A stretch of 64,000 nt of DNA, taken from Patescibacteria group bacterium (GTDB lineage: Bacteria > Patescibacteriota > JABMPQ01 > JAQVVF01). Numbering within the stretch: the stretch's first letter is position 1; every line of letters starts with the position of its first letter. The translations under genes were made by a program, and so were the position numbers. Where the stretch lies: positions 103,883-167,882 of the forward strand of contig JAQVVF010000001.1 in assembly GCA_028699085.1 (NCBI GenBank), in the 5' to 3' direction. The notes beneath the pieces were generated by a model that ran no database searches, had not been told where the DNA came from, and saw only the letters and a program-made list of their open reading frames with translations. This document shows, one piece after another, positions 899 to 39,521 of the stretch.

Positions 899-952
899 TT
901 TGTGGTCCGGCCTTTAGGCCGGAAAGTTCAGGGCTAAAGCCCTGACCACAAA
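899..952 (+). repeat. GC-rich Y-shaped structured intergenic element, copy 1 (candidate small RNA or regulatory structure)
   Basis: Outer stem TTGTGGTC/GACCACAA enclosing two hairpins CGGCC-TTTA-GGCCG and AGGGC-TAAA-GCCCT; lies just upstream of the typA start; second copy at 18905. Confidence 0.55.
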
Positions 953-4754: not shown

Positions 4755-5859
4755 CGTAAAACAAAAAAGTAGAGAACAAAAAAATTTGTTCCATGCATCG
4801 CGTGGTCTTAAAGCCATGTTGCCTCATGGAGGTCTGCCTGAAATTATCTCTCCTTACATGGTTGATTTAATTTCCAAAAACGGCGGAGTTGATGGACCAT
4901 TAGGTAAGCAATTTGTTGCCCAGCCTGCAAAAGAAAAAAGATTAGCTAAAACAAACAACCTTGATCCATTATCCGAAGATGAGCATGAAGTTGCTCCTGG
5001 CTTAATTTACAAATATGAAGGTAAATTAAAAAAAGGTAAGGTCCAAACTTTTGGCCGTGTTTTGTGGACAGTCACTAGATTTTGTGCTACCTATTGTCGT
5101 TTTTGTACTCGTGGCCGAGAGATCGGTATACCTGCTGGATCTTGCGGTAAGACAAAAGGTACAATTGCCAATAATGCTTTTTTGACAGACCAACAAATTA
5201 ATGAAGTTTTTAAATTTATAAAAGAGCATAAAGAAATCAACGAAATTATATTATCAGGTGGCGATCCTTTAGTTGCTCCAAAAGATTATTTAATCAAAAT
5301 AATTACTGGCCTTTCCAAATTACAAGAACAAGGCTATCTCGATGTAGTGAGAATTGGATCTCGCTTGCCAATTGTTAATCCAAGTGCTATTCAAGAATGG
5401 CATTATGAATTGCTAGGCAAAATCAAAAATTTAAATTTAATGGTTCACATCAACCATCCTTCAGAACTTACACAACAATCTGTAGATGTTTTGTATAATT
5501 TCAGAAAAAAAAGTTTAGCAACAGTTTTCAGCCAGACAGTGTTGCTAAAAGGCGTTAATGATAATGTTGAAACCTTATATCAATTATTTATCAAAATAGT
5601 AAAAGAGGGAATTAGACCATACTATATGTATCAAAATGATCCAGTCTATTGGGCAAATCATTTCACAGTTCCATTCAAAAGAGCAGTTGCAATTTGGGAG
5701 AAATTAAGACCAAGATTATCCGGTATTGCTGCAACAGCTAGGTTCGTAATTGATACTCCTCATGGTTATGGCAAAATTCCAGTTCCAGAAGGATCTGCAT
5801 GGAAAGTAAACTACAACTCATTCATCGATTTTAAAAAGAAAAAACATATAATCAAATAA
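4741..5859 (+). CDS. KamA-family radical SAM aminomutase (lysine 2,3-aminomutase-like)
   Basis: CATYCRFCTRG radical-SAM Cys triad in KamA-type spacing, GGDPLV motif; 14-nt overlap with upstream ATP-grasp gene suggests translational coupling. Confidence 0.75.
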   Translation: MQKSNVKQKSREQKNLFHASRGLKAMLPHGGLPEIISPYMVDLISKNGGVDGPLGKQFVAQPAKEKRLAKTNNLDPLSEDEHEVAPGLIYKYEGKLKKGKVQTFGRVLWTVTRFCATYCRFCTRGREIGIPAGSCGKTKGTIANNAFLTDQQINEVFKFIKEHKEINEIILSGGDPLVAPKDYLIKIITGLSKLQEQGYLDVVRIGSRLPIVNPSAIQEWHYELLGKIKNLNLMVHINHPSELTQQSVDVLYNFRKKSLATVFSQTVLLKGVNDNVETLYQLFIKIVKEGIRPYYMYQNDPVYWANHFTVPFKRAVAIWEKLRPRLSGIAATARFVIDTPHGYGKIPVPEGSAWKVNYNSFIDFKKKKHIIK

Positions 5860-7196: not shown

Positions 7197-8582
7197 ATGA
7201 AAAAAATTATCATTGGAGCTGTAACGCTCATTAGTTTGTGTATCTGTTCTAATCAAGTATTTGCTTATGATTCTTCTTCTCCGGAAGTAAAAATTTATAA
7301 TGTCAAAAATTTAAGACAGAACAAAGCCTTTTTTGCTTATGACAGGAATTTCAAAGGCGGTGCAAGCGTTGCTTTTGCCAAACTTGATGATAGTAAAAAT
7401 CATTTTTTAATTACTGGCGCAGGCTATGGTGGCGGTCCTCAAGTTAAAATCTTTGACAAATTCGGCAAAGAAAAGTATTCATTCAATGCATTTTCATCTA
7501 ATTTCAAAGGTGGAGTCAATGTTGCAGCTGGCGATTTAAACAAAGACGGCTATGATGAGATAATATGTTCTCAGGCAAGTTCTGGTCAAGCTTGGATAAA
7601 AGTTTATGACAAGACAGGCAAAAAAGTTCTATCAAATTTTTTAGGCTTTCCATCTGGATTTAAGGGAGGAGCAAATATTGCATCTGGTGATATTAATGGC
7701 GACAAAAAAGATGAAATAATAGTTGGCGCAGGATATGGTGGCGGTCCTCAAGTTCGTGTATTCACAAGAAAAGGCAAAGCTTTATTTTCTTCTTATCCTT
7801 TTGCGTATGATTTTCGAGGCGGAGTGAATGTTGCAACTGGTGATGTTGATAATGATTCCAAAGATGAGATAATTGCCAGCCAGGCATCAGAAGGTCAAGC
7901 TTGGGTAAAAGTTTTTAAAGCAAATAAAGATGTTACTGTTTTAGGAAATTTTTTAGCTTATAGCTCAAATTTTAAGGGCGGTGCAACTGTTTCCGGAATC
8001 GATGTCAATAATGACAAAAAAGCAGAAGTAATTACAGGCGCAGGCTTTGGCGGCGGTCCTCAAGTTAAAATTTTTACAGCAACAGGCCATTCATTAGGTA
8101 AAGATTTTTTCGCTTTTGATCAAAATTTTAAGGGTGGAGTCAATGTAGCCAGTGGAAAATTATCAATAACTGGGAATAACAAAATTTCAGTTTCAGTTGC
8201 CAGCTACAAAGGCGAGAGAGGCAATGATTACCAAAAGTATATCGAAGTAGATATTAGCGAACAGTGGTTGAAATATTTTGAAAATGGCAGGAGATTGGGC
8301 TATTCATTAGCCTCAACTGGCAATTATGGCACTGACACTCCGCTTGGAACTTATTTTATATTTTCGAAAAGACTTTCAGTTCGTATGACTGGTCCAGGCT
8401 ATGATCTTCCAGGCGTTCCATACGTGTTAGCATTTTTAGGTCCTTATACAATTCATGGTACATATTGGCATGACAATTTTGGCCATCGTATGAGTCATGG
8501 TTGCGTCAATTTGCCAACACCGTTTGCAGCAGAGGTTTACAATTGGGCAGATATCGGCACTCCAGTAGTAATCCACGAATAA
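7197..8582 (+). CDS. secreted FG-GAP/VCBS-like repeat protein fused to C-terminal L,D-transpeptidase (YkuD) domain
   Basis: Signal peptide; repeats of FKGGxxVAxGDxxxDxxDEIIxGAGxGGGPQVKIF; C-terminal HGTYWHDNFGHRMSHGCVNLP matches the L,D-transpeptidase catalytic His/Cys motif. Confidence 0.75.
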   Translation: MKKIIIGAVTLISLCICSNQVFAYDSSSPEVKIYNVKNLRQNKAFFAYDRNFKGGASVAFAKLDDSKNHFLITGAGYGGGPQVKIFDKFGKEKYSFNAFSSNFKGGVNVAAGDLNKDGYDEIICSQASSGQAWIKVYDKTGKKVLSNFLGFPSGFKGGANIASGDINGDKKDEIIVGAGYGGGPQVRVFTRKGKALFSSYPFAYDFRGGVNVATGDVDNDSKDEIIASQASEGQAWVKVFKANKDVTVLGNFLAYSSNFKGGATVSGIDVNNDKKAEVITGAGFGGGPQVKIFTATGHSLGKDFFAFDQNFKGGVNVASGKLSITGNNKISVSVASYKGERGNDYQKYIEVDISEQWLKYFENGRRLGYSLASTGNYGTDTPLGTYFIFSKRLSVRMTGPGYDLPGVPYVLAFLGPYTIHGTYWHDNFGHRMSHGCVNLPTPFAAEVYNWADIGTPVVIHE

Positions 8583-9177: not shown

Positions 9178-9933
9178 ATGATTAAGAAATTAGCTTTAAG
9201 CATTATATTTCTAGGGTTATTGGAATCAATTATTTATTTCCAAAAATCAAATATTGTTATTATCATTGCTGCTATTCTCTTATTTCTACTTTCACTTATT
9301 TCTTCAGTTCGGCTAAAAGTTTTACACAAAATTGGTTTTTGGGGACAAGTAAATATTTCTATTTTGCCTCTTTCGTATATTCTAAGTGCAACAGTTTTTT
9401 TATTGTTTGTTCCAGATCTATATTATTTACAGCAAATTTATCTAGGTCTAGCTACTATCATTTTTTACGGCGCTTTAAAGCTTGTCGAAAATGTTTGCAG
9501 AGATGTTAAAAGCAGAAATGCCTTCAAGACTTGTGATTTTTTAATCACAATCTCAGCTTTCTTATTTTATGCTAGTATCTTCGGATTGTATCTTTTCTTG
9601 CTATGGCCATCTTGGATCTTCCTGATTCTCTTAGCTTTTGTTACTTTCATCCTCACTTATGAATTCTTCTGGCATAATCTGCTCTTGCAAAAACACATTG
9701 TTTATTCATTGATTTTAACTTTAATAATCTCTGAAATCAGCTGGGCATTAACACTATGGCCAACAGGTTTTATGCCTAGAGCAATGGTCATTTTTACAGT
9801 CTTTTATGCCTTTACGACTCTATCTAAACATAATTTCAATAAGACCTTGAACAAAAAGGTTGTCAGAAATATTATTATAATTAGTATTTTAATCCTATTG
9901 CTGGCCTTGCTAACAACCCAGTGGACGTTTTAG
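9178..9933 (+). CDS. polytopic membrane protein, unknown function
   Basis: Long ORF, multiple hydrophobic helices, no recognisable motif. Confidence 0.5.
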   Translation: MIKKLALSIIFLGLLESIIYFQKSNIVIIIAAILLFLLSLISSVRLKVLHKIGFWGQVNISILPLSYILSATVFLLFVPDLYYLQQIYLGLATIIFYGALKLVENVCRDVKSRNAFKTCDFLITISAFLFYASIFGLYLFLLWPSWIFLILLAFVTFILTYEFFWHNLLLQKHIVYSLILTLIISEISWALTLWPTGFMPRAMVIFTVFYAFTTLSKHNFNKTLNKKVVRNIIIISILILLLALLTTQWTF

Positions 9934-9973
9934 CCTTAGAAAGCCATTAAAGTTAATATAAAACTAGATAATA

Positions 9974-10002
9974 TTGACAAATATTACAGGCTATGCTATA
10001 TT
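9974..10002 (+). promoter_or_regulatory. sigma70-like promoter (TTGACA-17-TATATT) for Wzz-like gene
   Basis: TTGACA 9974-9979, TATATT 9997-10002; this sits inside the 5' end of the track ORF 9974..10798, so the real start is moved to ATG 10010. Confidence 0.5.
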
Positions 10003-12156: not shown

Positions 12157-12343
12157 TTTAGTTTATCAAAAAAGCCAAAAAAGCACAAATAATCGTCAAA
12201 AAATGGCTTATTCAAGCCTAGTTGTATAAATAATGTTGACAAATATTTTATATTGTGCTAATCTTTCATGATACATTCCTCAGGTTCTGGAAGCGGGATC
12301 GGACCCTACAACTGGAGAGAAACAAGGTAAGGAGGGCAAGGAA

Positions 12344-13384
12344 ATGAAGCGCAAGATCAACTGGATGCTGATGGTGGTGGTTTTCTATTTCTTCAACATC
12401 TTCAACCCGATCTACATGTTCATGGACGATGACGAGGGCCAGATCGCCTACGCGCAGGATGGATCCGAGCAGAAGGTCTGGACGATGCTGGATGCGGATC
12501 TGCAGGGCACCGGCGTGAGCTGGAAGCCCGCGTGGACCGAACAGCTCCAGGCTGCCAAGGCGATGATGGAAGCGAACCAGTTCTCCTGTCTCGAAGTGAG
12601 TGGTGTCGAGGACATCACCGGGTTCAACGTCGGCAACACGGAACTCCGTGCGGCCGGTGGTGAAGACCCGCTTCGGGCAGTGAGGGCGAGGGCGCGTGCC
12701 AGCTTCGTCATGAACAAGCTGATGGAGGTGGGTGTGGCGGGAAGCAAGATCCGTGAAGGTACCATGACGACCCGGGCCAACGAAGGCCAGAGGGGCGCCG
12801 TGATCCGCCTGATCGAGGACTGCATCCCCAAGCCGCCGGTCCAGTGCTGGGACAGCAACGAGAACTACAAGTGTGATGGTGATGAGGACGTGAACAAGGA
12901 CTCGGAGTGCAACGTGAAGGACTGCCAGGGGAACGACGGGACGGCCAAGGTCGAGATCAAGTACGACCTCGTCGGCCAGTACGTCAAGTACCTCGGAAGC
13001 CCCGAACGTGATCCGTTCACCGGAATCCTGCTCCGTGCCAACTTCCCCATCAGCGACAAGCTGACGTTGGGGCTGGCTGCGGAGTACGGCAAGGCGAACG
13101 AGATCGGTGCTGCCGGGTTCGAGCTCGACGCTGAGTGGGATTGGTTCCGCTGGATCAAACCGCGGATCAGTCTCATCGGCCGGGCCTACAACCTGACGAC
13201 GCACCTGTACTTCAAGCGTGGAGAAGTTGGTGGCGGCGTGGGCTTCAGCGGAGAACTCGTGGAGAATGAAAGCTGGTCCATCATCTATCAGGTGGTGGGC
13301 GAGTGGAAGTACGACATCGAGTACACCCGCTGGGAGTGGGAGGCGGTCAAGTCCGCGACGGGCGCCATCGGCGTCCGGTTCTGA
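12344..13384 (+). CDS. secreted OmpA-like-domain protein with C-terminal beta-strand-rich, OMP-like tail (paralogue P1, high-GC copy)
   Basis: AAGGAGGG RBS; hydrophobic N-terminus; CLEVSGVEDITGFNVGNTELRAAGGEDPLRAVRARARASFVMNKLMEVGVAGSKIREG resembles an OmpA_C peptidoglycan-binding domain; C-terminus ...GAIGVRF. Clear paralogy with the 15083 and 16072 proteins supports this strand over the antisense 12266..13444 ORF. Confidence 0.7.
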   Translation: MKRKINWMLMVVVFYFFNIFNPIYMFMDDDEGQIAYAQDGSEQKVWTMLDADLQGTGVSWKPAWTEQLQAAKAMMEANQFSCLEVSGVEDITGFNVGNTELRAAGGEDPLRAVRARARASFVMNKLMEVGVAGSKIREGTMTTRANEGQRGAVIRLIEDCIPKPPVQCWDSNENYKCDGDEDVNKDSECNVKDCQGNDGTAKVEIKYDLVGQYVKYLGSPERDPFTGILLRANFPISDKLTLGLAAEYGKANEIGAAGFELDAEWDWFRWIKPRISLIGRAYNLTTHLYFKRGEVGGGVGFSGELVENESWSIIYQVVGEWKYDIEYTRWEWEAVKSATGAIGVRF

Positions 13385-13470
13385 CGGAGAGTCCCGGGCG
13401 TCCGGCTTCGCAAGGAGTCGGGCGCCCGGTTCCGGGTGAGTCAACGGCAGAAGAGTGAGGAGGTAGAGAG

Positions 13471-14199
13471 ATGCGGAACTTCAAGCTGTGCATCATGGTG
13501 GCGATCCTGGCGATGGTGGTCGGATGTGCACTCGAGCCCCAGCCCAGCAACGGCAACGGCGGCAACGAGGGCGAAGGAGAAGGCGAGGGCGTCGAGGGTG
13601 AAGGCGAGGGCGAGGGTGAGCACCCCTGCGTGGCCGGCGAGTGCGAGGACGGGTTCGTCTGCATGGACGGGACCTGCGTGCCGGATGGGCAGGAGGGCGA
13701 GGGCGAGACGGACGGCGGCGTGGACGGCGGTGAAGGGTGCGAGTGCGACGGCGGCTGCGAGGGCGAGGGCGGCAACGAGTGCACCGAAGGGCAGCGGCAG
13801 TGCATCGAAAACGCGTGGCAGATCTGCGAGAGCAACGGCTACTGGGGTGTCCTGAACGACTGCCTCGAGGGCCAGATCTGCAACAACGGCAGCTGCGTGC
13901 CCGAGCCCGTGACCAACCCCTACACCTGCGCGGTCTGGATCAACGAGCGGGGAGAGCTGTGCGGTGACATCAACGGCCTGTCGTCGTGGACCTTCGGGTG
14001 CATGTACGAAGGGGTCGAACCGGTCTGCGAGCTGAACACCTACAACGGTGCATGCGTGCAGATCCCGGACGATGTCGTCAACACGGCATGGCCTCGGACG
14101 GAAGATGGCGGATGGCTGACGGTCGCGGGCTGCGAAGCGCGCGATGGTCTGGTCATCACCATCGACCCGGCAGGTGGTCACTTCCTGACGCTCCCCTAG
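13471..14199 (+). CDS. cysteine-rich lipoprotein with (GE)n low-complexity linker and EGF-like Cys modules
   Basis: GAGGAGG RBS; signal peptide plus lipobox MVVGC; GNEGEGEGEGVEGEGEGEGE tract; multiple CxxGxC motifs. Confidence 0.6.
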   Translation: MRNFKLCIMVAILAMVVGCALEPQPSNGNGGNEGEGEGEGVEGEGEGEGEHPCVAGECEDGFVCMDGTCVPDGQEGEGETDGGVDGGEGCECDGGCEGEGGNECTEGQRQCIENAWQICESNGYWGVLNDCLEGQICNNGSCVPEPVTNPYTCAVWINERGELCGDINGLSSWTFGCMYEGVEPVCELNTYNGACVQIPDDVVNTAWPRTEDGGWLTVAGCEARDGLVITIDPAGGHFLTLP

Positions 14200-14484
14200 A
14201 AACTTCAGTTCCCACCCGACAAACGCAAGTGCGTCGGGTGCGGCATTCTCTCCAACAATTCCAGTTCTTTCAGCGTACGTTCCTTCAAGAGTTCACTATT
14301 CAGTGGGCTCTTTTTTTATCCAAAAAAATATTGCATTTGAAACTTGGTTTTTGCTAAACCTTAGTTTCAAAGAGTGAGTATCAAATAGCCCTAAAGACAG
14401 AACACAATTACCAAGGCTAAAATATTGACAAATTTAGGCATTATAGTATAATACAAAGTCAAAACAGCACCTTTTGTACCTTCA

Positions 14485-14568
14485 GCCCGGATGGCGAAAG
14501 GGCAGCCGCAGGGGACTTAAAATCCTCCGTCGCAAGACATGCGGGTTCGAATCCCGCTCCGGGCACCA
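14485..14568 (+). tRNA. tRNA-Leu (anticodon UAA), type II with long variable arm
   Basis: Acceptor GCCCGGA/TCCGGGC, 3-bp D-stem with GG in loop, anticodon stem GGGGA/TCCTC with loop CTTAAAA (U33, TAA, A37), 13-nt variable arm with GTC/GAC stem, T-arm GCGGG-TTCGAAT-CCCGC, encoded CCA. Confidence 0.85.
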
Positions 14569-14597: not shown

Positions 14598-14609
14598 GTC
14601 AGAATCTAC

Positions 14610-14677
14610 GGGTTCGCCCCGCCATGAAGGCGGGGCGCCCTGGCCTTGTGCCAGGGCGAATCCCGCTCCGGGCACCA
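14610..14677 (+). repeat. 68-nt GC-rich tRNA-3'-end-derived element, copy 1 (GGGTTCG, two GC hairpins, then CGAATCCCGCTCCGGGCACCA)
   Basis: Last 21 nt identical to the 3' end of tRNA-Leu at 14548-14568; internal hairpins CCCCGCC-ATGAA-GGCGGGG and CCCTGGC-CTTGT-GCCAGGG; followed by its own terminator hairpin aacagtata-tta-ctatactgtttttt. Confidence 0.7.
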
Positions 14678-14725
14678 CAAAACAGTATATTACTATACTG
14701 TTTTTTCTTTAGATAAAAATGCTAA

Positions 14726-14793
14726 GGGTTCGCCCCGCCATGAAGGCGGGGCGCCCTGGCCTTGTGCCAGGGCGAATCCCGCTCCGGGCACCA
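14726..14793 (+). repeat. 68-nt GC-rich tRNA-3'-end-derived element, copy 2 (identical to copy 1)
   Basis: Identical 68 nt; followed by terminator hairpin agcagtatct...agatactgcttttttt. Confidence 0.7.
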
Positions 14794-15082
14794 TTAGCAG
14801 TTATCTTCAAGATACTGCTTTTTTTATCGCAAAAATAAAAAATTGTTATTTCAAAAGCTAATTTTCGAATATATGAAAATCGCAAAAAGCTTAAGAACAA
14901 TTTATTTGTTCAAGATAATTTATAAATACAATTATTATTTTGACAAATAGAATAACATTTGTGCGATTTGTGGCCGAAGGCATTCGCAAGATTAGTATGA
15001 AACACATTGACAAAGCAAAAAATAATGTTAAACTATCAAGTACAGAAAATCGCGCACTTTCCATTTCCAAAACGGAGGCATC

Positions 15083-17451: not shown

Positions 17452-18897
17452 ATGATAAAAAACAAACTTCAAAATCTTTCTAAACCGCTAATTTATACCA
17501 CGTTATGTTTTTTTTACGTCAGCATATTTATTTTGCCTTCTTTTTTTATTCCATTTAATATTTATTTATATCTTTTTGGAATTGGATTTGCCTCATTATT
17601 TATTTTAAAAGTTCCAGAAGTTGGTTTGTACACAATTGTTCTTTGTACAATGATTTACGAAAGATTTTTCACCTTACAGCCAATTATCTTAGACGTTAAT
17701 ATTTACAAGATTTATCCAATTGATGTTTTATTAGCAGTTACTTTCATTAGTTTTTTGATTCATCATTTTGGCAATTTAGGAAGTAAAGAAATAAAATATA
17801 CTAGATTAGAAAAAGCAACCTTTATTTTTTTTCTAACATTAATAGTAGCTCTAGTTTATAGCATTATTAAAAATCCTGACAAAGAATTAGCTTTAGCAAC
17901 ATTCAAGAACTATAGCTATCTATTAATTTTGTTCTTAACAATATTTATCATCAGAACAAAAGTCCAGTTCAAAAGAATCATCAAAGTTTTTCTTGCAGGC
18001 GGGATTATTCTAATTGGTTTTATTATTTACGGCTTAGCAACGGGAAATGGTCTCTGGAGTGAATTTACTCCAGGAACACGATTCTTAGCTCAAACTCACA
18101 CCTATTATCTTTTATTGCCAGTATTCATTGCGATTGTTTTTTTAACATACGGTAAAGAAATTTACGGCCATATCAAGACTCAAGCAATTATTTTAGTTCA
18201 ATCAGTTGGCATTGTTGCAGGTATGCATCGTCACCTTTGGCTTGGCTTTCTATCTGGCTTGGCAACAATTTTTCTTTTATCAAACAAAGAAAAAAGAAAA
18301 GTCGCTTTGAAAAATATTTTAGGGATCCTGCTAGTTGTCTTAATTGTTTTTTCAATAGTTATCTGGATTACAGCCATGTTAAATACAGATATAAATATTA
18401 AGGCGTCTTCGTATACACAAAGATTTATCGAAAGAGTTCAATCTTTATTTACTTTAAAATCTAGCAACATTGAAGAAGCAGCAGGATGGCGTTTGAAAGC
18501 CTGGCAAGAAGGATTAGTACAATATTCAAAAAATCCAATACTGGGTATCGGTTTTGGCAAAATGCTTAATGTCGAATTCAAAGGCTTTGTGTCAACTGTA
18601 GAAATGCGTGCTTTGCATAATGAGCTATTGGGAGTCTTAATCCAAACTGGAATCATCGGCCTTATTCCATTTCTATTCATAAATTATTATCTAATAAAAT
18701 ATTTTATTAAGCTTTATAAAGCTAAAATTTCAGAACAACCTGAATTAATTGCCTTATTTGCGTTCTATGTTGCAACCTGCGTTGGTTTGCTTTTCTCCTT
18801 GTATTTAGTCACAAATATGCTTAATATATTCTATTGGATTGCAATGGGATTGATTGTTAGTTTATATAAAATGTATAAACTAGATCAAATTAAATAG
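17452..18897 (+). CDS. O-antigen ligase/Wzy-like polytopic membrane protein
   Basis: About 12 TM helices plus periplasmic-loop motif MRALHNELLGVLIQTGIIGL resembling the Wzy_C (O-antigen ligase) domain. Confidence 0.6.
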   Translation: MIKNKLQNLSKPLIYTTLCFFYVSIFILPSFFIPFNIYLYLFGIGFASLFILKVPEVGLYTIVLCTMIYERFFTLQPIILDVNIYKIYPIDVLLAVTFISFLIHHFGNLGSKEIKYTRLEKATFIFFLTLIVALVYSIIKNPDKELALATFKNYSYLLILFLTIFIIRTKVQFKRIIKVFLAGGIILIGFIIYGLATGNGLWSEFTPGTRFLAQTHTYYLLLPVFIAIVFLTYGKEIYGHIKTQAIILVQSVGIVAGMHRHLWLGFLSGLATIFLLSNKEKRKVALKNILGILLVVLIVFSIVIWITAMLNTDINIKASSYTQRFIERVQSLFTLKSSNIEEAAGWRLKAWQEGLVQYSKNPILGIGFGKMLNVEFKGFVSTVEMRALHNELLGVLIQTGIIGLIPFLFINYYLIKYFIKLYKAKISEQPELIALFAFYVATCVGLLFSLYLVTNMLNIFYWIAMGLIVSLYKMYKLDQIK

Positions 18898-18904
18898 TTT
18901 ATTA

Positions 18905-18954
18905 ATTGCGGCCTGGCCTTCAGGCCAGGACCCAGGCTAAAGCCTGGGCCACAA
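18905..18954 (+). repeat. GC-rich Y-shaped structured intergenic element, copy 2
   Basis: TTGCGGCC...GGCCACAA outer stem; hairpins TGGCC-TTCA-GGCCA and CAGGC-TAAA-GCCTG; compensatory changes relative to the 899-952 copy keep the pairing. Confidence 0.55.
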
Positions 18955-18965
18955 TACAAAAAAGT

Positions 18966-20180
18966 ATGAAGATAATCCAAGCAAACAAATTCTACTATTT
19001 GAAAGGCGGAGCAGAACGCTATTATTTTAATTTAATAAAATTGCTCGAATCAAAAGGACATGAAGTTATTCCTTTTGCAATGCATGATGAAAAAAATTAT
19101 TCAAGCAAATATTCAAAATATTTCGTTAGTAATGTAGATTTCGAAAAGTCGGGGCATAATTTAAAAAAGGCCTGGCGAGTCTTATATTCTTTTGAAGCTA
19201 AAAAAAAGTTTGAGCAATTAATCAAAGATACAAATCCAGACATTATTCATATTCATAATATTTATCATCAAATCTCGCCATCAATTTTGACTGTTGCCAA
19301 AAAACATAAGATCCCAGTTGTTGAGACTCTCCATGATTTTAAGCTAATATGTCCAAATTATACTCTATATTCAAAAAAAGAGCTTTGTGAGCAGTGCAAA
19401 AAATATCGTTATTACAAATGTACTTTTAGAAAATGCATTAAGAACAAATTTTGGCAAAGCGCTCTTGCATCAAAAGAAATGTATTTTCATAAATTAATTA
19501 GAATATATGAAAATAATGTTAATTTATTTTTAGCGCCAAGTAAATTTGTTTATAATAAAATTTTAGAATTTGGCATCATAACAGCAGAACAAATAACTAT
19601 TTTGCCCGAATTCGTTTATACAAAAAATAATAATCTTCAACAACAAAATCAGGAAAATTACGTTTTGTATTTTGGCAGATTAATAAAAGAAAAGGGAATC
19701 AAGACCTTGATTTCAGCAATGAAAAAAGTTAACAATCTAGAGTTGCATATTGCCGGATCAGGTCCAGATGAGCAAGAATTCAAAGACCTAGTTAAAAAAG
19801 AAAACTTAAATAATATCAAGTTTTTGGGCTTTTTAGATCAAGAAAAACTTAAACAAGAAATTAGAAATTCTTTATTTGTAATTCATCCATCAGAAGTCTA
19901 TGAGACTTTTGGTTTATCAATCCTAGAAAACTACGCTTTAGCAAAGACAGTTATAGCCTCAAATTTAGGAGCATTGCCAGAAATTGTTAAAGATAAGCAA
20001 ACTGGCTTATTATTCAAAGCAGGCGATAGTGATGATCTCACAGACAAAATTAATTATTTAGCGAATAACCAAAATTTAGTTATAAAAATGGGCGATAATG
20101 CAAAAAAAATAGTTGAACAAAAATACAGTTCAGAAGTGCATTATCAACAACTGATCAAAATTTACGAAGAATTAAAATAG
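18966..20180 (+). CDS. GT4-family glycosyltransferase
   Basis: MKIIQANKFYYLKGGAERYY start, C-terminal FGLSILENYALAKTVIASNLGALPEIVKDKQTGLLF GT4 motif; track ORF start 18906 overlaps the structured element and is unlikely. Confidence 0.8.
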   Translation: MKIIQANKFYYLKGGAERYYFNLIKLLESKGHEVIPFAMHDEKNYSSKYSKYFVSNVDFEKSGHNLKKAWRVLYSFEAKKKFEQLIKDTNPDIIHIHNIYHQISPSILTVAKKHKIPVVETLHDFKLICPNYTLYSKKELCEQCKKYRYYKCTFRKCIKNKFWQSALASKEMYFHKLIRIYENNVNLFLAPSKFVYNKILEFGIITAEQITILPEFVYTKNNNLQQQNQENYVLYFGRLIKEKGIKTLISAMKKVNNLELHIAGSGPDEQEFKDLVKKENLNNIKFLGFLDQEKLKQEIRNSLFVIHPSEVYETFGLSILENYALAKTVIASNLGALPEIVKDKQTGLLFKAGDSDDLTDKINYLANNQNLVIKMGDNAKKIVEQKYSSEVHYQQLIKIYEELK

Positions 20181-36395: not shown

Positions 36396-36656
36396 TTTTT
36401 ATTTACATTGTTATTCAATATATTTATGCATAAATTTGATATTAACCATTTTTTTATTAAAAAACAAACTTTTTTGATAAGTAGGTCCATAAAGCTTGTT
36501 TTTTTATGCTCAAAATTGACAAAAACAACATAAATAGCTACAATAAGCCATTTTTATCTTGCCAAATTATTATTAATATGCTATATTAATTTGAACAGAA
36601 AACCCAAGGTTTCGGCTGTACTGACCGAACCTTTCATAGCAAAGAGGAGGAGAGAG

Positions 36657-39521
36657 ATGAAGCCAAGAAACATGGTTGTCTTTTTGTTTTGTTGTGTGAT
36701 TTTGAGTGGCTGTCTCAAGCCGAACGAAGATTTTTCGAAGAATCTGTGCGATGAAGATGTGCGTTGTTCTGATGGATTTACCTGTATCTGCAACATGGAA
36801 AATCATACCAAGATTTGCGTCAGTGAGTCTGATCTTCCTGAGAACGCTGTTTATGCCAGCAAGGAGACGATCTGCATGATCGAATCCGATGCCGGAGTTG
36901 ATGTCGGAACTGATGTTGAAGCTGATGGCAATGTGCCTGATGCTGAAACTGATGTCCAGACTGATGCTTCGTCTGATGCAGAACAAGATGGAGGCTCGGA
37001 TCTTTCGCCTGACAATGGAACCGATTTGGCTCCTGACTCTGGTGAAGATATCCCTTGTATTCCGTCTACTGAAATCTGCGACCTCAAGGACAACGACTGC
37101 GACGGCGACACTGATGAAGATTTCAACAATCTGAATCAGGCCTGCTCGTCTGGCTTGGGTGAGTGTGAAGCTTCTGGCGTCTACGTTTGTAGCGTCGATG
37201 GCAAGAACACTACTTGCAACGCAGTCGCAGGAATTGCTGTTGCTGAAGAATGTGATGAACTGGACAATGATTGTGACGGCGTTACTGACGAAGAGTTGGT
37301 TGGCTGTTGCGATGAAGACGATGTCCAGGAGTGTGGATCTGATGTTGGTGAATGCCAGAAGGGTCAAATGACTTGTCAGGAAGACGGCAGTTGGGGACAG
37401 TGCGAAAACGCTGTTGCTCCGATTGTTGATCTTTGCGATGACAAGGACAATGATTGCGATGGCAACACCGACGAGGATTTCATTAATCTGAATTCTGCTT
37501 GTCAGATTGGTCAGGGCGCTTGTCTTTCGCATGGCGTTTTTGCTTGTAGCGAAGACAGCCTCACGACCGAATGCAACGCTGAAATCATCCAGCCTTCCGA
37601 AGAGGTATGCGATCAGCAGGATAACAACTGCGATGGCAATACTGATGAAGATTTGGCTGGCTGTTGCATTCCCGATGATCAGGTTGTTTGTGGCTCCAAT
37701 GTTGGCGAATGCCGGCAGGGCCTCAAGACTTGTTCAGCGGAAGGCGTCTGGAGCGAATGTGTCGGCGAAGTCAAGGTTGCAGAAGAGCTTTGTGATAGCA
37801 AGGACAACAACTGCGACGGCTTCATCGATGAAAAGTTCGTTAATCTTCATGCACAGTGCCAGATCGGAATTGGCGAATGCGTATCGACAGGCACAATGAT
37901 TTGCGCAATTGATCAGCAATCGCTGTCTTGCAACGCAGAAGTCAAAGTCGGAAGCGACGAGACCTGTGACAACAAGGACAATGACTGTGATGGTAATACC
38001 GATGAAGAGCTGACGCGTGAATGCGGCTCTGATGTCGGCGAATGCCAGAAGGGCGTGCAGTCTTGTTCCGCTGGTGGCTGGCTTGTCTGCGAAGGCGAGA
38101 TTCAGTCGAGCGACGAGATCTGTGACGGCCAAGATAACAACTGCGACAACAATACTGACGAAGGTTTCAACATTGGCGATCAGTGCTTCAACGGACTTGG
38201 CGAATGCCGGACCGAAGGCGTGATTGCTTGTGTTGATGAAAATCAGAGTGCTTGCAATGCAGTTGCCGGCTCAGCAAGCGAAGAGCTTTGCGATGGCCTG
38301 GATAACGATTGCGACGATTTGATCGATGAAGAGCTGGAAGACTGTTGTGAGCCTGGCACAATTTCTGAGTGCGGTATTGATACTGGGGAATGTGTGAAGG
38401 GAACTTCCACGTGCCTGGCAGACCGCTCTTGGGACTGGTGTTTTGGAGCAACTGGACCTTCCATGGAAGAATGCGATGGCAAGGATAATGACTGCGATGG
38501 CGAAAACGACAATGATCTGATTGGCTGTTGCTCTCCGGGTGTTTCTCGCAATTGCGGTATCGATGAAGGCGAATGCCGAATCGGAACGCAGACTTGCTGG
38601 GAAAATCGGGAATGGGGCGCATGCCAGAATCAGATCTCGCCGACTGATGAGATCTGTGATGGTTTGGACAACAACTGCGATGGTTTCACTGATGAGGACT
38701 TTGACCTCACCTTTGATACCAACAACTGCGGTAGTTGTAACCACATTTGCGGAAATCAGGGGACAGCGAGTTCAATCTGCGAAGCTGGTGAATGCATTCT
38801 GCAATGCAGTCGCTTCCGCTTCGATGTGAATGCTGATCCTGCTGATGGATGTGAATGTGAAGTCACCAACTGCGGAGTGGAAATCTGCGATCAGGTTGAC
38901 AATGACTGCGATGGCGCTGTCGACGAAGACTGCCAGTCGCTGGTCATGTACCTGTCATTTGACAACCATTTCAATGATGGTTCAACGAATGCTAACAATG
39001 CTGTCAACCACGGCGCCACTTTCACTGCGGATGCAGTTTGTGGCCAGGCAGCATCGTTCGACGGAGTCGACGATTATGCTGAAGTGGATAGCGTGAGTAT
39101 GAATAGTATTGGTAATGAGTTTACGTTCTTCGCAACAGTCAAGGTGCGAAGTTTCGAGCTCAATGACAGAATTTTCAATAAATATCTAAACAAGCCAAGT
39201 ATTGGAATTGATTTTTCCGATAATGTTGGAAACTGCTGGAATTTTATGTTGTCTTCAAACAACATTGGTTGTAACAAGGCAGTAGCTGTCCAGACATGGA
39301 TTACCATTGCCGGAAAATATAGTAATGGTAGATTCATTTCTTATGTAAATGGTGAAAAAGATGTAGACGTAAATACTGCCAACATGCTAGGTACAAAAAT
39401 GTACATCGGTGCATCTAGCAATTCTGGAACAAAGAGTGATATGATTATTGATCAACTTGTTTTTTACAACAAGGCATTTTCGGAAGAAGAAATCGTACAT
39501 TATTTTAAAATCCTAAAGTAG
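36657..39521 (+). CDS. 955-aa cysteine-rich repeat lipoprotein: 11 x CD.xDN[DN]CDGxTDE (MopE/putative-metal-binding-like) repeats plus C-terminal LamG (Laminin_G_3/concanavalin-like) domain
   Basis: AAGAGGAGG RBS then ATG 36657; lipobox ILSGC; alternating repeat modules; C-terminal ...AASFDGVDDYAEVDSV...LVFYNKAFSEEEIVHYF typical of LamG_3. Moderately GC-rich (~50%). Confidence 0.75.
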   Translation: MKPRNMVVFLFCCVILSGCLKPNEDFSKNLCDEDVRCSDGFTCICNMENHTKICVSESDLPENAVYASKETICMIESDAGVDVGTDVEADGNVPDAETDVQTDASSDAEQDGGSDLSPDNGTDLAPDSGEDIPCIPSTEICDLKDNDCDGDTDEDFNNLNQACSSGLGECEASGVYVCSVDGKNTTCNAVAGIAVAEECDELDNDCDGVTDEELVGCCDEDDVQECGSDVGECQKGQMTCQEDGSWGQCENAVAPIVDLCDDKDNDCDGNTDEDFINLNSACQIGQGACLSHGVFACSEDSLTTECNAEIIQPSEEVCDQQDNNCDGNTDEDLAGCCIPDDQVVCGSNVGECRQGLKTCSAEGVWSECVGEVKVAEELCDSKDNNCDGFIDEKFVNLHAQCQIGIGECVSTGTMICAIDQQSLSCNAEVKVGSDETCDNKDNDCDGNTDEELTRECGSDVGECQKGVQSCSAGGWLVCEGEIQSSDEICDGQDNNCDNNTDEGFNIGDQCFNGLGECRTEGVIACVDENQSACNAVAGSASEELCDGLDNDCDDLIDEELEDCCEPGTISECGIDTGECVKGTSTCLADRSWDWCFGATGPSMEECDGKDNDCDGENDNDLIGCCSPGVSRNCGIDEGECRIGTQTCWENREWGACQNQISPTDEICDGLDNNCDGFTDEDFDLTFDTNNCGSCNHICGNQGTASSICEAGECILQCSRFRFDVNADPADGCECEVTNCGVEICDQVDNDCDGAVDEDCQSLVMYLSFDNHFNDGSTNANNAVNHGATFTADAVCGQAASFDGVDDYAEVDSVSMNSIGNEFTFFATVKVRSFELNDRIFNKYLNKPSIGIDFSDNVGNCWNFMLSSNNIGCNKAVAVQTWITIAGKYSNGRFISYVNGEKDVDVNTANMLGTKMYIGASSNSGTKSDMIIDQLVFYNKAFSEEEIVHYFKILK

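Follow-up and report, generated by a model that had tools for sequence, protein, structure and literature searches.

The 64,000-nt stretch of DNA analysed here (the window throughout) comes from a Patescibacteria bacterium with a tiny genome of roughly 30% GC, and it carries two short GC-rich elements that we read below as probable pairs of REPs (repetitive extragenic palindromes). The first (copy 1, 899-952) lies in the 5' leader of typA, 105 nt past the stop codon of an FKBP gene. The second (copy 2, 18905-18955) occupies the intercistronic gap between a Wzy_C-family gene (stop codon at 18895-18897) and a GT4 gene (ATG at 18966), and lies 7-10 nt past the upstream stop codon. The start codons 3' of both copies lack a Shine-Dalgarno sequence. 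They are separated from the CCAC that ends each element by 14 nt (copy 1) and 13 nt (copy 2), and from the end of the A/T-extended stem by 11 and 10 nt, respectively. The first-pass annotation of this DNA had put both copies within about 12 nt of a start codon; the distances measured here are 10-14 nt, and GT4 starts at 18966 and not at 18967. All copies that we found, in the window and in its relatives, are extragenic and lie between called open reading frames (ORFs).

Copy 1 reads TTTGTGG-TCCGGCC-TTTA-GGCCGGA-AAGT-TCAGGGC-TAAA-GCCCTGA-CCACAAA and is arranged as a head-to-head dimer, Y-shaped when single-stranded. It comprises the GTGG tag of unit A on the + strand (902-905), the hairpin of unit A (906-923), the hairpin of unit B (928-945), both with a 7-bp stem and a 4-nt loop, and the GTGG tag of unit B on the - strand (946-949), which appears as CCAC on the + strand. 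Copy 2, a head-to-head dimer like copy 1, reads ATTGCGG-CCTGGCC-TTCA-GGCCAGG-A-CCCAGGC-TAAA-GCCTGGG-CCACAAT. In it a degenerate tag GCGG (18908-18911, + strand), which on the + strand leaves the outer stem with a C.A mismatch, is followed by the hairpins of unit A (18912-18929) and unit B (18931-18948) and by the GTGG tag of unit B (18949-18952, - strand, again CCAC on the + strand). Each unit therefore amounts to an 18-nt hairpin with a 7-bp GC-rich stem and a 4-nt loop, plus a 4-nt tag; GTGG directly abuts every 7-bp hairpin, and the spacer between the two hairpins is 1-4 nt across copies. The outward tags on opposite strands pair with each other within a single strand and, with the two hairpins, give the Y shape.

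The predicted RNA fold of both elements is a three-way junction, with an energy of -33.6 kcal/mol (z-score -7.9) for copy 1 and -31.0 kcal/mol (z-score -4.7) for copy 2, and none of 200 shuffles reaches the energy of either copy. The DNA fold has the same shape (z-scores -8.1 and -3.8). A covariance model of these two sequences, such as the first-pass annotation had proposed for a genome-wide search, found only two strong matches in the window, namely the copies themselves (83.7 and 76.5 bits). Owing to the near dyad symmetry of the element, the model scores nearly as high on the opposite strand of either copy. A 24-nt half-site pattern gives 4 matches in the window against 0.00 expected, and the only other perfect GC-rich 6-7-bp hairpins there are two inserts in tRNA-Leu T-arms at ~14.6-14.8 kb, described below. 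The proposal that two GC-rich segments share one architecture is thus borne out at 899-952 and 18905-18955.

Relatives of the window were used to extend the comparison. Exact-protein searches with the window TypA and with protein P0121 gave no match. The TypA and GT4 proteins have their closest named relatives in Patescibacteria, or candidate phyla radiation (CPR), bacteria. A JGI contig (L150) encodes a TypA identical to that of the window, and a metagenome-assembled genome (MAG; GCA_964574655.1, locus L148) and a Logan contig (L149) encode TypA proteins of 86% identity. A half-site pattern scan of 185,579 species-representative genomes returned 27 matches, mostly due to chance in GC-rich genomes; the only real ones are three loci of one MAG, the same as that of L148, which has 32-34% GC and a size of roughly 1 Mb. 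One of them (L007) has a full head-to-head dimer between ligA and gatC, another (L023) has a full head-to-head dimer between two co-directional genes, and the third (L021), flanked by rpsB and a TruD-like gene, carries its units tail-to-tail, with the tags inside, both of them GTGG, and a 30-nt spacer.

The head-to-head dimers of this lineage (window copies 1 and 2, L007, L023, L148 and L150; n=6) were aligned. If both hairpins are taken as 7 bp long, pairing reaches 100% in hairpin 1 and 97.6% in hairpin 2; five of the hairpin pairs are changed on both sides among the six copies, and none of 500 shuffles matches the observed score, in agreement with the compensatory changes noticed earlier between the two window copies. 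The earlier parse, an outer stem closing two 5-bp hairpins, is the poorer one: pairs 8-25 and 30-47 of the 7-bp-hairpin parse are intact in 6/6 copies, whereas pair 8-47, which belongs to an 8-bp outer stem with 5-bp hairpins, is broken in 2/6. The outer helix consists of the invariant GTGG...CCAC (at the half-sites of the six full dimers the tag is GTGG in 11 cases out of 12 and GCGG in one) plus a weakly paired A/T extension; beyond the tags the pairing is poor (85.7%), and column pair 3-52 is broken in three of the six copies. That the stems covary while the sequence of the tetranucleotide stays fixed suggests that the tag is recognised and not the helix. The covariation is real, yet it cannot tell RNA structure from a hairpin in single-stranded DNA (ssDNA). 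Non-Watson-Crick pairs on the sense strand include C.A in copy 2 and, at two positions, L007, and G.T in L023 and L150; in L148 they are mixed. Mismatches on that strand are roughly as frequent as wobbles. We considered the asymmetry between G.U and C.A as a test for the functional strand and rejected it, as the copies are inconsistent and allow no strand call. Taken with the near-perfect symmetry, this gives no indication that conservation acts on the sense RNA and not on the hairpin in DNA.

Inverted, outward-facing GTGG tags on 7-bp hairpins make a head-to-head REP dimer, and we consider it likely that each of the two segments is an inverted, head-to-head pair of GTGG-tagged REPs, of the same kind as REPs, bacterial interspersed mosaic elements (BIMEs) and REP doublets forming hairpins (REPINs), and not a gene-specific regulatory RNA. 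The features expected of REPs are found together here: a short GC-rich palindrome, a GTAG-type tag, an extragenic position, head-to-head as well as tail-to-tail dimers or clusters, and variable presence at orthologous sites. With REPINs the elements share the inverted doublet as the unit; instead of one long hairpin they have two tag-closed hairpins.

Comparison of orthologous sites reveals turnover. The typA promoter of the window, TTGACA-17-TATACT (803-831), is strong and sigma-70-like, and matches the consensus at 11/12 positions; this promoter and an AU-rich leader hairpin are kept in all four typA leaders (window, L150, L148 and L149). The dimer is present in the window, L150 and L148, and absent from L149. 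Among the orthologous typA copies, one hairpin-1 pair has changed from T-A to C-G, which is fully compensatory, and one hairpin-2 pair from A-T to G-C to G.T; hairpin 2 of L148 contains two G.T pairs and one C.A mismatch. A comparison of the window with L148 gives about the same degree of conservation for the flanking leader and for the element. The AU-rich part of the leader is an observation of its own: within 803-874 an AU-rich hairpin of 13 bp and then a U-tract come after the promoter (AAAAUUCUGCUGG-AUUU-UCAGUGGAAUUUU-UAUUU), with a compensatory change in L148, and this segment looks like a leader of the terminator or attenuator type for typA.

At the second site, i.e. the gap between the Wzy_C and GT4 genes, the Y-shaped dimer is present in the window only. 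Two relatives with 85% GT4 identity (L151 and L152) have an unrelated ~70-nt palindrome there, GTCAT...ATGAC, of -36.9 kcal/mol; those with 86% identity (L154 and L155) have a single, different GTAG palindrome (CGTAGGCGAGATTCATGAATCTCGCCTACG, L154 6649-6678); one with 82% identity (L153) has a long AT-rich palindrome; and two contigs with 90% identity (L156 and L157) start inside a repeat of the L151 type. The ~70-nt palindrome (GTCATTCCGAACGAAGTGAGGAATTCCGTGA...TCGCTTCGCTCGAGATGAC; L151 about 9912-9983, and L152) attracts attention in its own right: because two Logan contigs (L156 and L157) begin inside the repeat, the data suggest a multi-copy element resembling miniature inverted-repeat transposable elements (MITEs), which breaks assemblies. 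Another GTAG palindrome was observed in L153 outside the GT4 gap (13673-13691, GTAGCGACAGGG-cagtg-CCCTGTCGCTAC). From the other GTAG-tagged palindromes in L153 and L154 it follows that the lineage hosts more than one REP family. Every relative possesses some strong palindrome in the Wzy-GT4 gap, with energies of -22 to -37 kcal/mol, and it is possible that a hairpin of some sort is favoured at this junction. The turnover at these sites fits mobile palindromes and not a leader RNA. Further orthologous junctions (ligA-gatC, rpsB and others) were sought in the lineage DNA examined, and none was found.

Within the lineage the family is probably small. The window has 2 dimers per 64 kb, and a restrictive pattern found three more loci in the related MAG; a covariance model of all six sequences, run on about 95 kb of relatives, found only the typA copy, and ~4 kb of sequence added beyond the right edge of the window contained no copy. 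A scan of viral contigs gave chance matches plus one single GTGG-hairpin unit. In L148, between a flavoprotein gene and the FKBP gene, we also observed a cluster (8037-8094) of three or four short AT-enriched hairpins with CTTTAG/CTAAAG loops as in the REP units, against 0.1 expected, which looks like a decayed REP array.

Outside the lineage, the hairpin family is very widespread. A metagenome scan with a pattern that specified only the two hairpins and their loops, leaving the flanks free, found at least 120 loci on contigs of 39-72% GC. Among the matches listed, GT[AG]G occurs within 8 nt 5' of hairpin 1 in 110 of 128 cases, although this flank was not part of the pattern, C[TC]AC occurs 3' of hairpin 2 in 107 of 128, and both tags are present in 102 of 128. 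A typical member reads GTAGG-GCAGGCC-TTTA-GGCCTGC-TTACT-GCAAGGC-TGAA-GCCTTGC-CCTAC. The metagenome members usually have one extra nucleotide between tag and stem, whereas in the window copies the tag abuts the stem. One contig (L079, 3591-4102) displays a 4-unit tandem array with a 120-nt period, composed of related double and single hairpins. An ORF flanked by two elements (L071) was considered as a possible REP-associated tyrosine transposase (RAYT) and rejected, as it is not a transposase.

A link to transposases comes from a high-GC metagenome contig (L067) that encodes two IS200-like Y1 transposases (PF01797), one at 32-415 (E value 2.4e-27) and the other at 5092-5550 (E value 1e-15). Immediately upstream of the second gene there is GTAGCGGCGGGTCAGGCTGAAGCCTGACC, a GTAG-plus-hairpin unit; the first gene has hairpins downstream, with a Y-shaped dimer at about 534-588, i.e. 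about 120 nt off. The two regions (1-600 and 5030-5552) are a possible REPtron, i.e. a RAYT gene flanked by REPs. In E. coli, TnpA-REP binds the REP hairpin together with the 5' GTAG in a base-specific manner, and both are needed for cutting ssDNA at CT (PMC3479197).

By analogy with what is known of such families, the element would spread and be maintained at the DNA level. Replication would expose the hairpin and the 5' GTAG-type tag in ssDNA, to be recognised and cut by a RAYT, an IS200-like transposase of the HUH/Y1 type, and the doublet would be the replicating unit, as in REPINs and BIMEs. A RAYT-type Y1 enzyme is the putative mobilising enzyme in this genome. The compensatory stem changes would then reflect the need for foldable hairpins plus descent from different REP sub-variants, which makes each element a heterodimer, and would not be due to selection acting on a gene-specific RNA. 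Both window copies are on the sense strand of RNA that is presumably transcribed, and a junction of about -31 to -34 kcal/mol located 10-14 nt before a start codon would be a side effect of insertion; from the example of E. coli REPs, such a stable junction could stabilise the upstream mRNA or dampen translation.

Several observations weigh against REP dimers as the explanation. The copy number looks low for a REP family, and tblastn detected no Y1/RAYT gene across about 227 kb of DNA from the lineage; the queries were the Y1 protein of L067 and an approximate E. coli RAYT sequence, and neither found a transposase in the window or in the lineage loci. The tag is GTGG and not GTAG, and every single-base change of GTAG abolished cleavage in E. 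coli (PMC3479197), so that an enzyme of different specificity would be required. As the metagenome pattern was derived from the window copies, the likeness of hairpins and loops is built into that family, and the independent evidence from it consists of the tags and the outer stem only. Finally, the typA copy is still GC-rich and foldable across 86% TypA identity, while the cluster at L148 8037-8094 appears to have decayed to AT-rich stems; this persistence could reflect host-level selection on some copies.

The last point leads to an explanation that we regard as unlikely, although it is compatible with the REP reading and not exclusive of it, namely that the elements are domesticated or host-selected intercistronic RNA structures that protect the 3' end of the upstream mRNA, act as a point of processing or partial termination, or tune translation of the adjacent cistrons, by making ribosomes stall close to the stop codon or by blocking the initiation region. 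Their positions suit such a role: copy 2, L007, L023 and L021 are placed 7-14 nt after the upstream stop codon, the copies lie 9-20 nt before an ATG, and all are found in co-directional gene pairs or in a 5' leader, and are presumably transcribed (for typA, from the near-consensus promoter mentioned above). The fully compensatory pair in a typA copy that has remained foldable, and the strong palindrome of one kind or another in the Wzy-GT4 gap of every relative, can be read in the same way. In E. coli, REPs stabilise upstream mRNA. Liang, Rudd and Deutscher reportedly found in 2015 that REPs within about 15 nt of the stop codon lower expression via trans-translation. On the other hand, L149 does without the typA copy, the flanking leader and the element are about equally conserved between the window and L148, and the C.A mismatches on the sense strand (copy 2 and L007) leave no sign of selection on a sense RNA as against a hairpin in DNA. 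Neither copy is followed by a U-tract (the sequences 3' of the elements are ATATTTATC and TACAAAAAAG), so that they are not intrinsic terminators, and this candidate was rejected. A bolder version, in which REP dimers are kept, possibly without a RAYT, as RNA junctions that serve as "punctuation" between cistrons by setting mRNA 3' ends or tuning translation, with the double hairpins in the tRNA-Leu T-loops of the window (14609-14795) belonging to the same undescribed hairpin-based system, appears to us more doubtful still.

Two further possibilities receive very little credence. A miniature derivative of IS200/IS605, similar to palindrome-associated transposable elements (PATEs), with left- and right-end hairpins and the transposase gene deleted, would account for two hairpins of the subterminal type with 5' tetranucleotides and for the wider family near IS200-like Y1 transposases. 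In IS608 and ISDra2, the hairpins of both IS200/IS605 ends and their guide sequences act on the same strand. Here, however, the two units form an inverted pair whose identical tags lie on opposite strands, and tail-to-tail dimers and single units also occur, as is the pattern for REPs, which makes a PATE-type origin highly improbable. Least probable, to the point of being nearly dismissed, is a gene-specific 5' leader RNA, riboswitch-like or a protein-binding three-way junction, acting on typA and GT4. The three-way-junction fold with covariation, and the location just 5' of start codons devoid of Shine-Dalgarno sequences, speak for it. Yet no unpaired junction or loop nucleotides are conserved beyond TTTA/TAAA, the linker is variable in length (1-4 nt), the element is symmetric on both strands, and the downstream genes (typA, GT4, gatC and the TruD-like gene) are unrelated. 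The data on presence and absence, i.e. the typA ortholog in L149 that lacks the element and the unrelated palindromes at GT4, largely refute it. Searches with Rfam at the gathering score in the window and six related loci found only a tRNA, and a permissive Rfam scan of 780-980 gave only hits far below threshold, to miRNA models and to Purine (24 bits against a gathering score of 37 bits). The first-pass annotation had left the choice between a 5' leader structure, a REP-like element and a small RNA family. The tags, the wider family and the Y1 neighbours support the REP-like option, and the gene-specific leader loses its ground with L149 and the turnover at GT4. DNA-level palindromes, which that annotation had named as evidence against a structured RNA, are essentially what we found, in the form of REP palindromes.

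The tRNA-Leu region of the window deserves a separate description. Downstream of the tRNA-Leu(TAA) gene (14485-14568) there are one or two partial copies of a tRNA (~14609-14679 and ~14726-14795), with similar copies in L151 (8319-8390) and L154 (2469-2536). Each fragment comprises a T-arm, the 3' acceptor strand and ACCA, has its own terminator hairpin, and has its T-loop split by a 42-46-nt GC-rich double hairpin: GGGTTCG[CCCCGCC-ATGAA-GGCGGGG-CG-CCCTGGC-CTTGT-GCCAGGG-CG]AATCCCGCTCCGGGCACCA. This arrangement is kept in relatives, with a compensatory stem change from CCCTGGC/GCCAGGG to CCCTGCC/GGCAGGG. The double hairpin has no GTGG tag and a weak score of 18.5 bits with the Y-element model. 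Possible explanations of the fragments are remnants of integrase att sites or a small RNA resembling a tRNA.

Two other regions of the window stand out by composition. An island of about 62% GC at 12266-14300 has counterparts of 62.5% GC in relatives (L151 5841-7634 and L154 96-2009); its + strand encodes two proteins without a Pfam match, one of 346 aa that has a hydrophobic, signal-like segment at its N-terminus and one of 242 aa that is rich in Cys, Gly and Glu and whose start resembles a lipobox. In the relatives, the gene calls for the island fall on the other strand and appear spurious. An ORF of 976 aa at 36591-39521, with 44% GC, which is unusual for this genome, contains repeated MopE-type Cys-rich metal-binding motifs (PF11617, E value 8.7e-35) and a C-terminal Laminin_G_3 domain.

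Among known systems, the closest to the elements described here is the GTAG-tagged REP superfamily (Di Nocera, De Gregorio & Rocco 2013, PMC3733652). The stems of its members are 6-9 bp long, and the terminal GTAG has become degenerate in some of the families and reads GTGG in one. They form dimers with the GTAG termini outside (head-to-head, HH) or inside (tail-to-tail, TT), and in some families only 1-5 bp separate the partners. Dimers commonly join units that differ in their stems (heterodimers), complementary stem changes occur inside families, and some families comprise "20-100 units, or even less" (all PMC3733652). The likeness extends to the stems, the GTGG variant, the inverted heterodimers with the tags outside, the extragenic position and the variable presence; in the terms of that study, the window copies are HH heterodimers and L021 is a TT dimer. 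The differences are the host, here a Patescibacteria/CPR bacterium of about 30% GC, the copy number, which appears low, and the fact that no REPtron was seen in the lineage DNA examined.

The REPIN model of Bertels & Rainey (2011), in which a REP doublet is proposed as the replicative unit (PMC3116915), shares with our reading the inverted doublet as the copied unit, its ability to fold in ssDNA or mRNA, its non-autonomous nature and a single-copy RAYT as the supposed mover. Classical REPINs have a longer spacer, and their REPs pair into one long hairpin, whereas here the spacer is 1-4 nt and each REP forms its own hairpin. As each REP forms a perfect hairpin and the two stems differ, the fold of lowest energy is Y-shaped; the alternative long hairpin of copy 1 would contain 4 mismatches in 25 pairs (hand count). 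The E. coli BIMEs, in which Y and Z REPs alternate, and their TnpA-REP (PMC3479197) likewise have inverted REPs of two sequence types located between co-transcribed genes, and a 5' GTAG-type tag that the Y1/HUH enzyme requires for binding and cleavage of ssDNA. They differ in longer imperfect hairpins with a bulge required by the enzyme, and in linkers that are defined motifs for integration host factor (IHF) or gyrase; no such sequence is present here. PATEs, which derive from IS200/IS605, resemble the elements in having a hairpin and a 5' guide tetranucleotide, which on ssDNA are recognised by a Y1 transposase; in IS200/IS605 both ends are active on one strand, whereas here the units are inverted, and single units and tail-to-tail pairs occur as well. 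The double-hairpin elements known from fungal mitochondrial DNA (mtDNA) and the GC clusters of yeast mtDNA are also small, GC-rich, embedded in AT-rich genomes and suspected to be mobile. They are organellar and are not known to have a GTAG tag or a Y1 link, so that the likeness is architectural only.

The elements thus probably belong to a well-known kind, which explains two GC-rich islands without a new class of RNA. The hosts known for tagged REP doublets are chiefly Proteobacteria, Cyanobacteria and a small number of further phyla, and in the literature searched we found no link of REPs or RAYTs with Patescibacteria/CPR; what is new is the host group, i.e. GTAG/GTGG REP doublets in a CPR genome of roughly 30% GC. 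Elements of this type break assemblies, as in the contigs L156 and L157 that end inside a repeat, and comparative screens may take them for motifs of the riboswitch type; they also provide markers of recent insertion and loss among close CPR genomes. A lineage that keeps foldable GC-rich copies would, if it proves to lack a RAYT, make a modest yet useful case for host-level selection on REPs.

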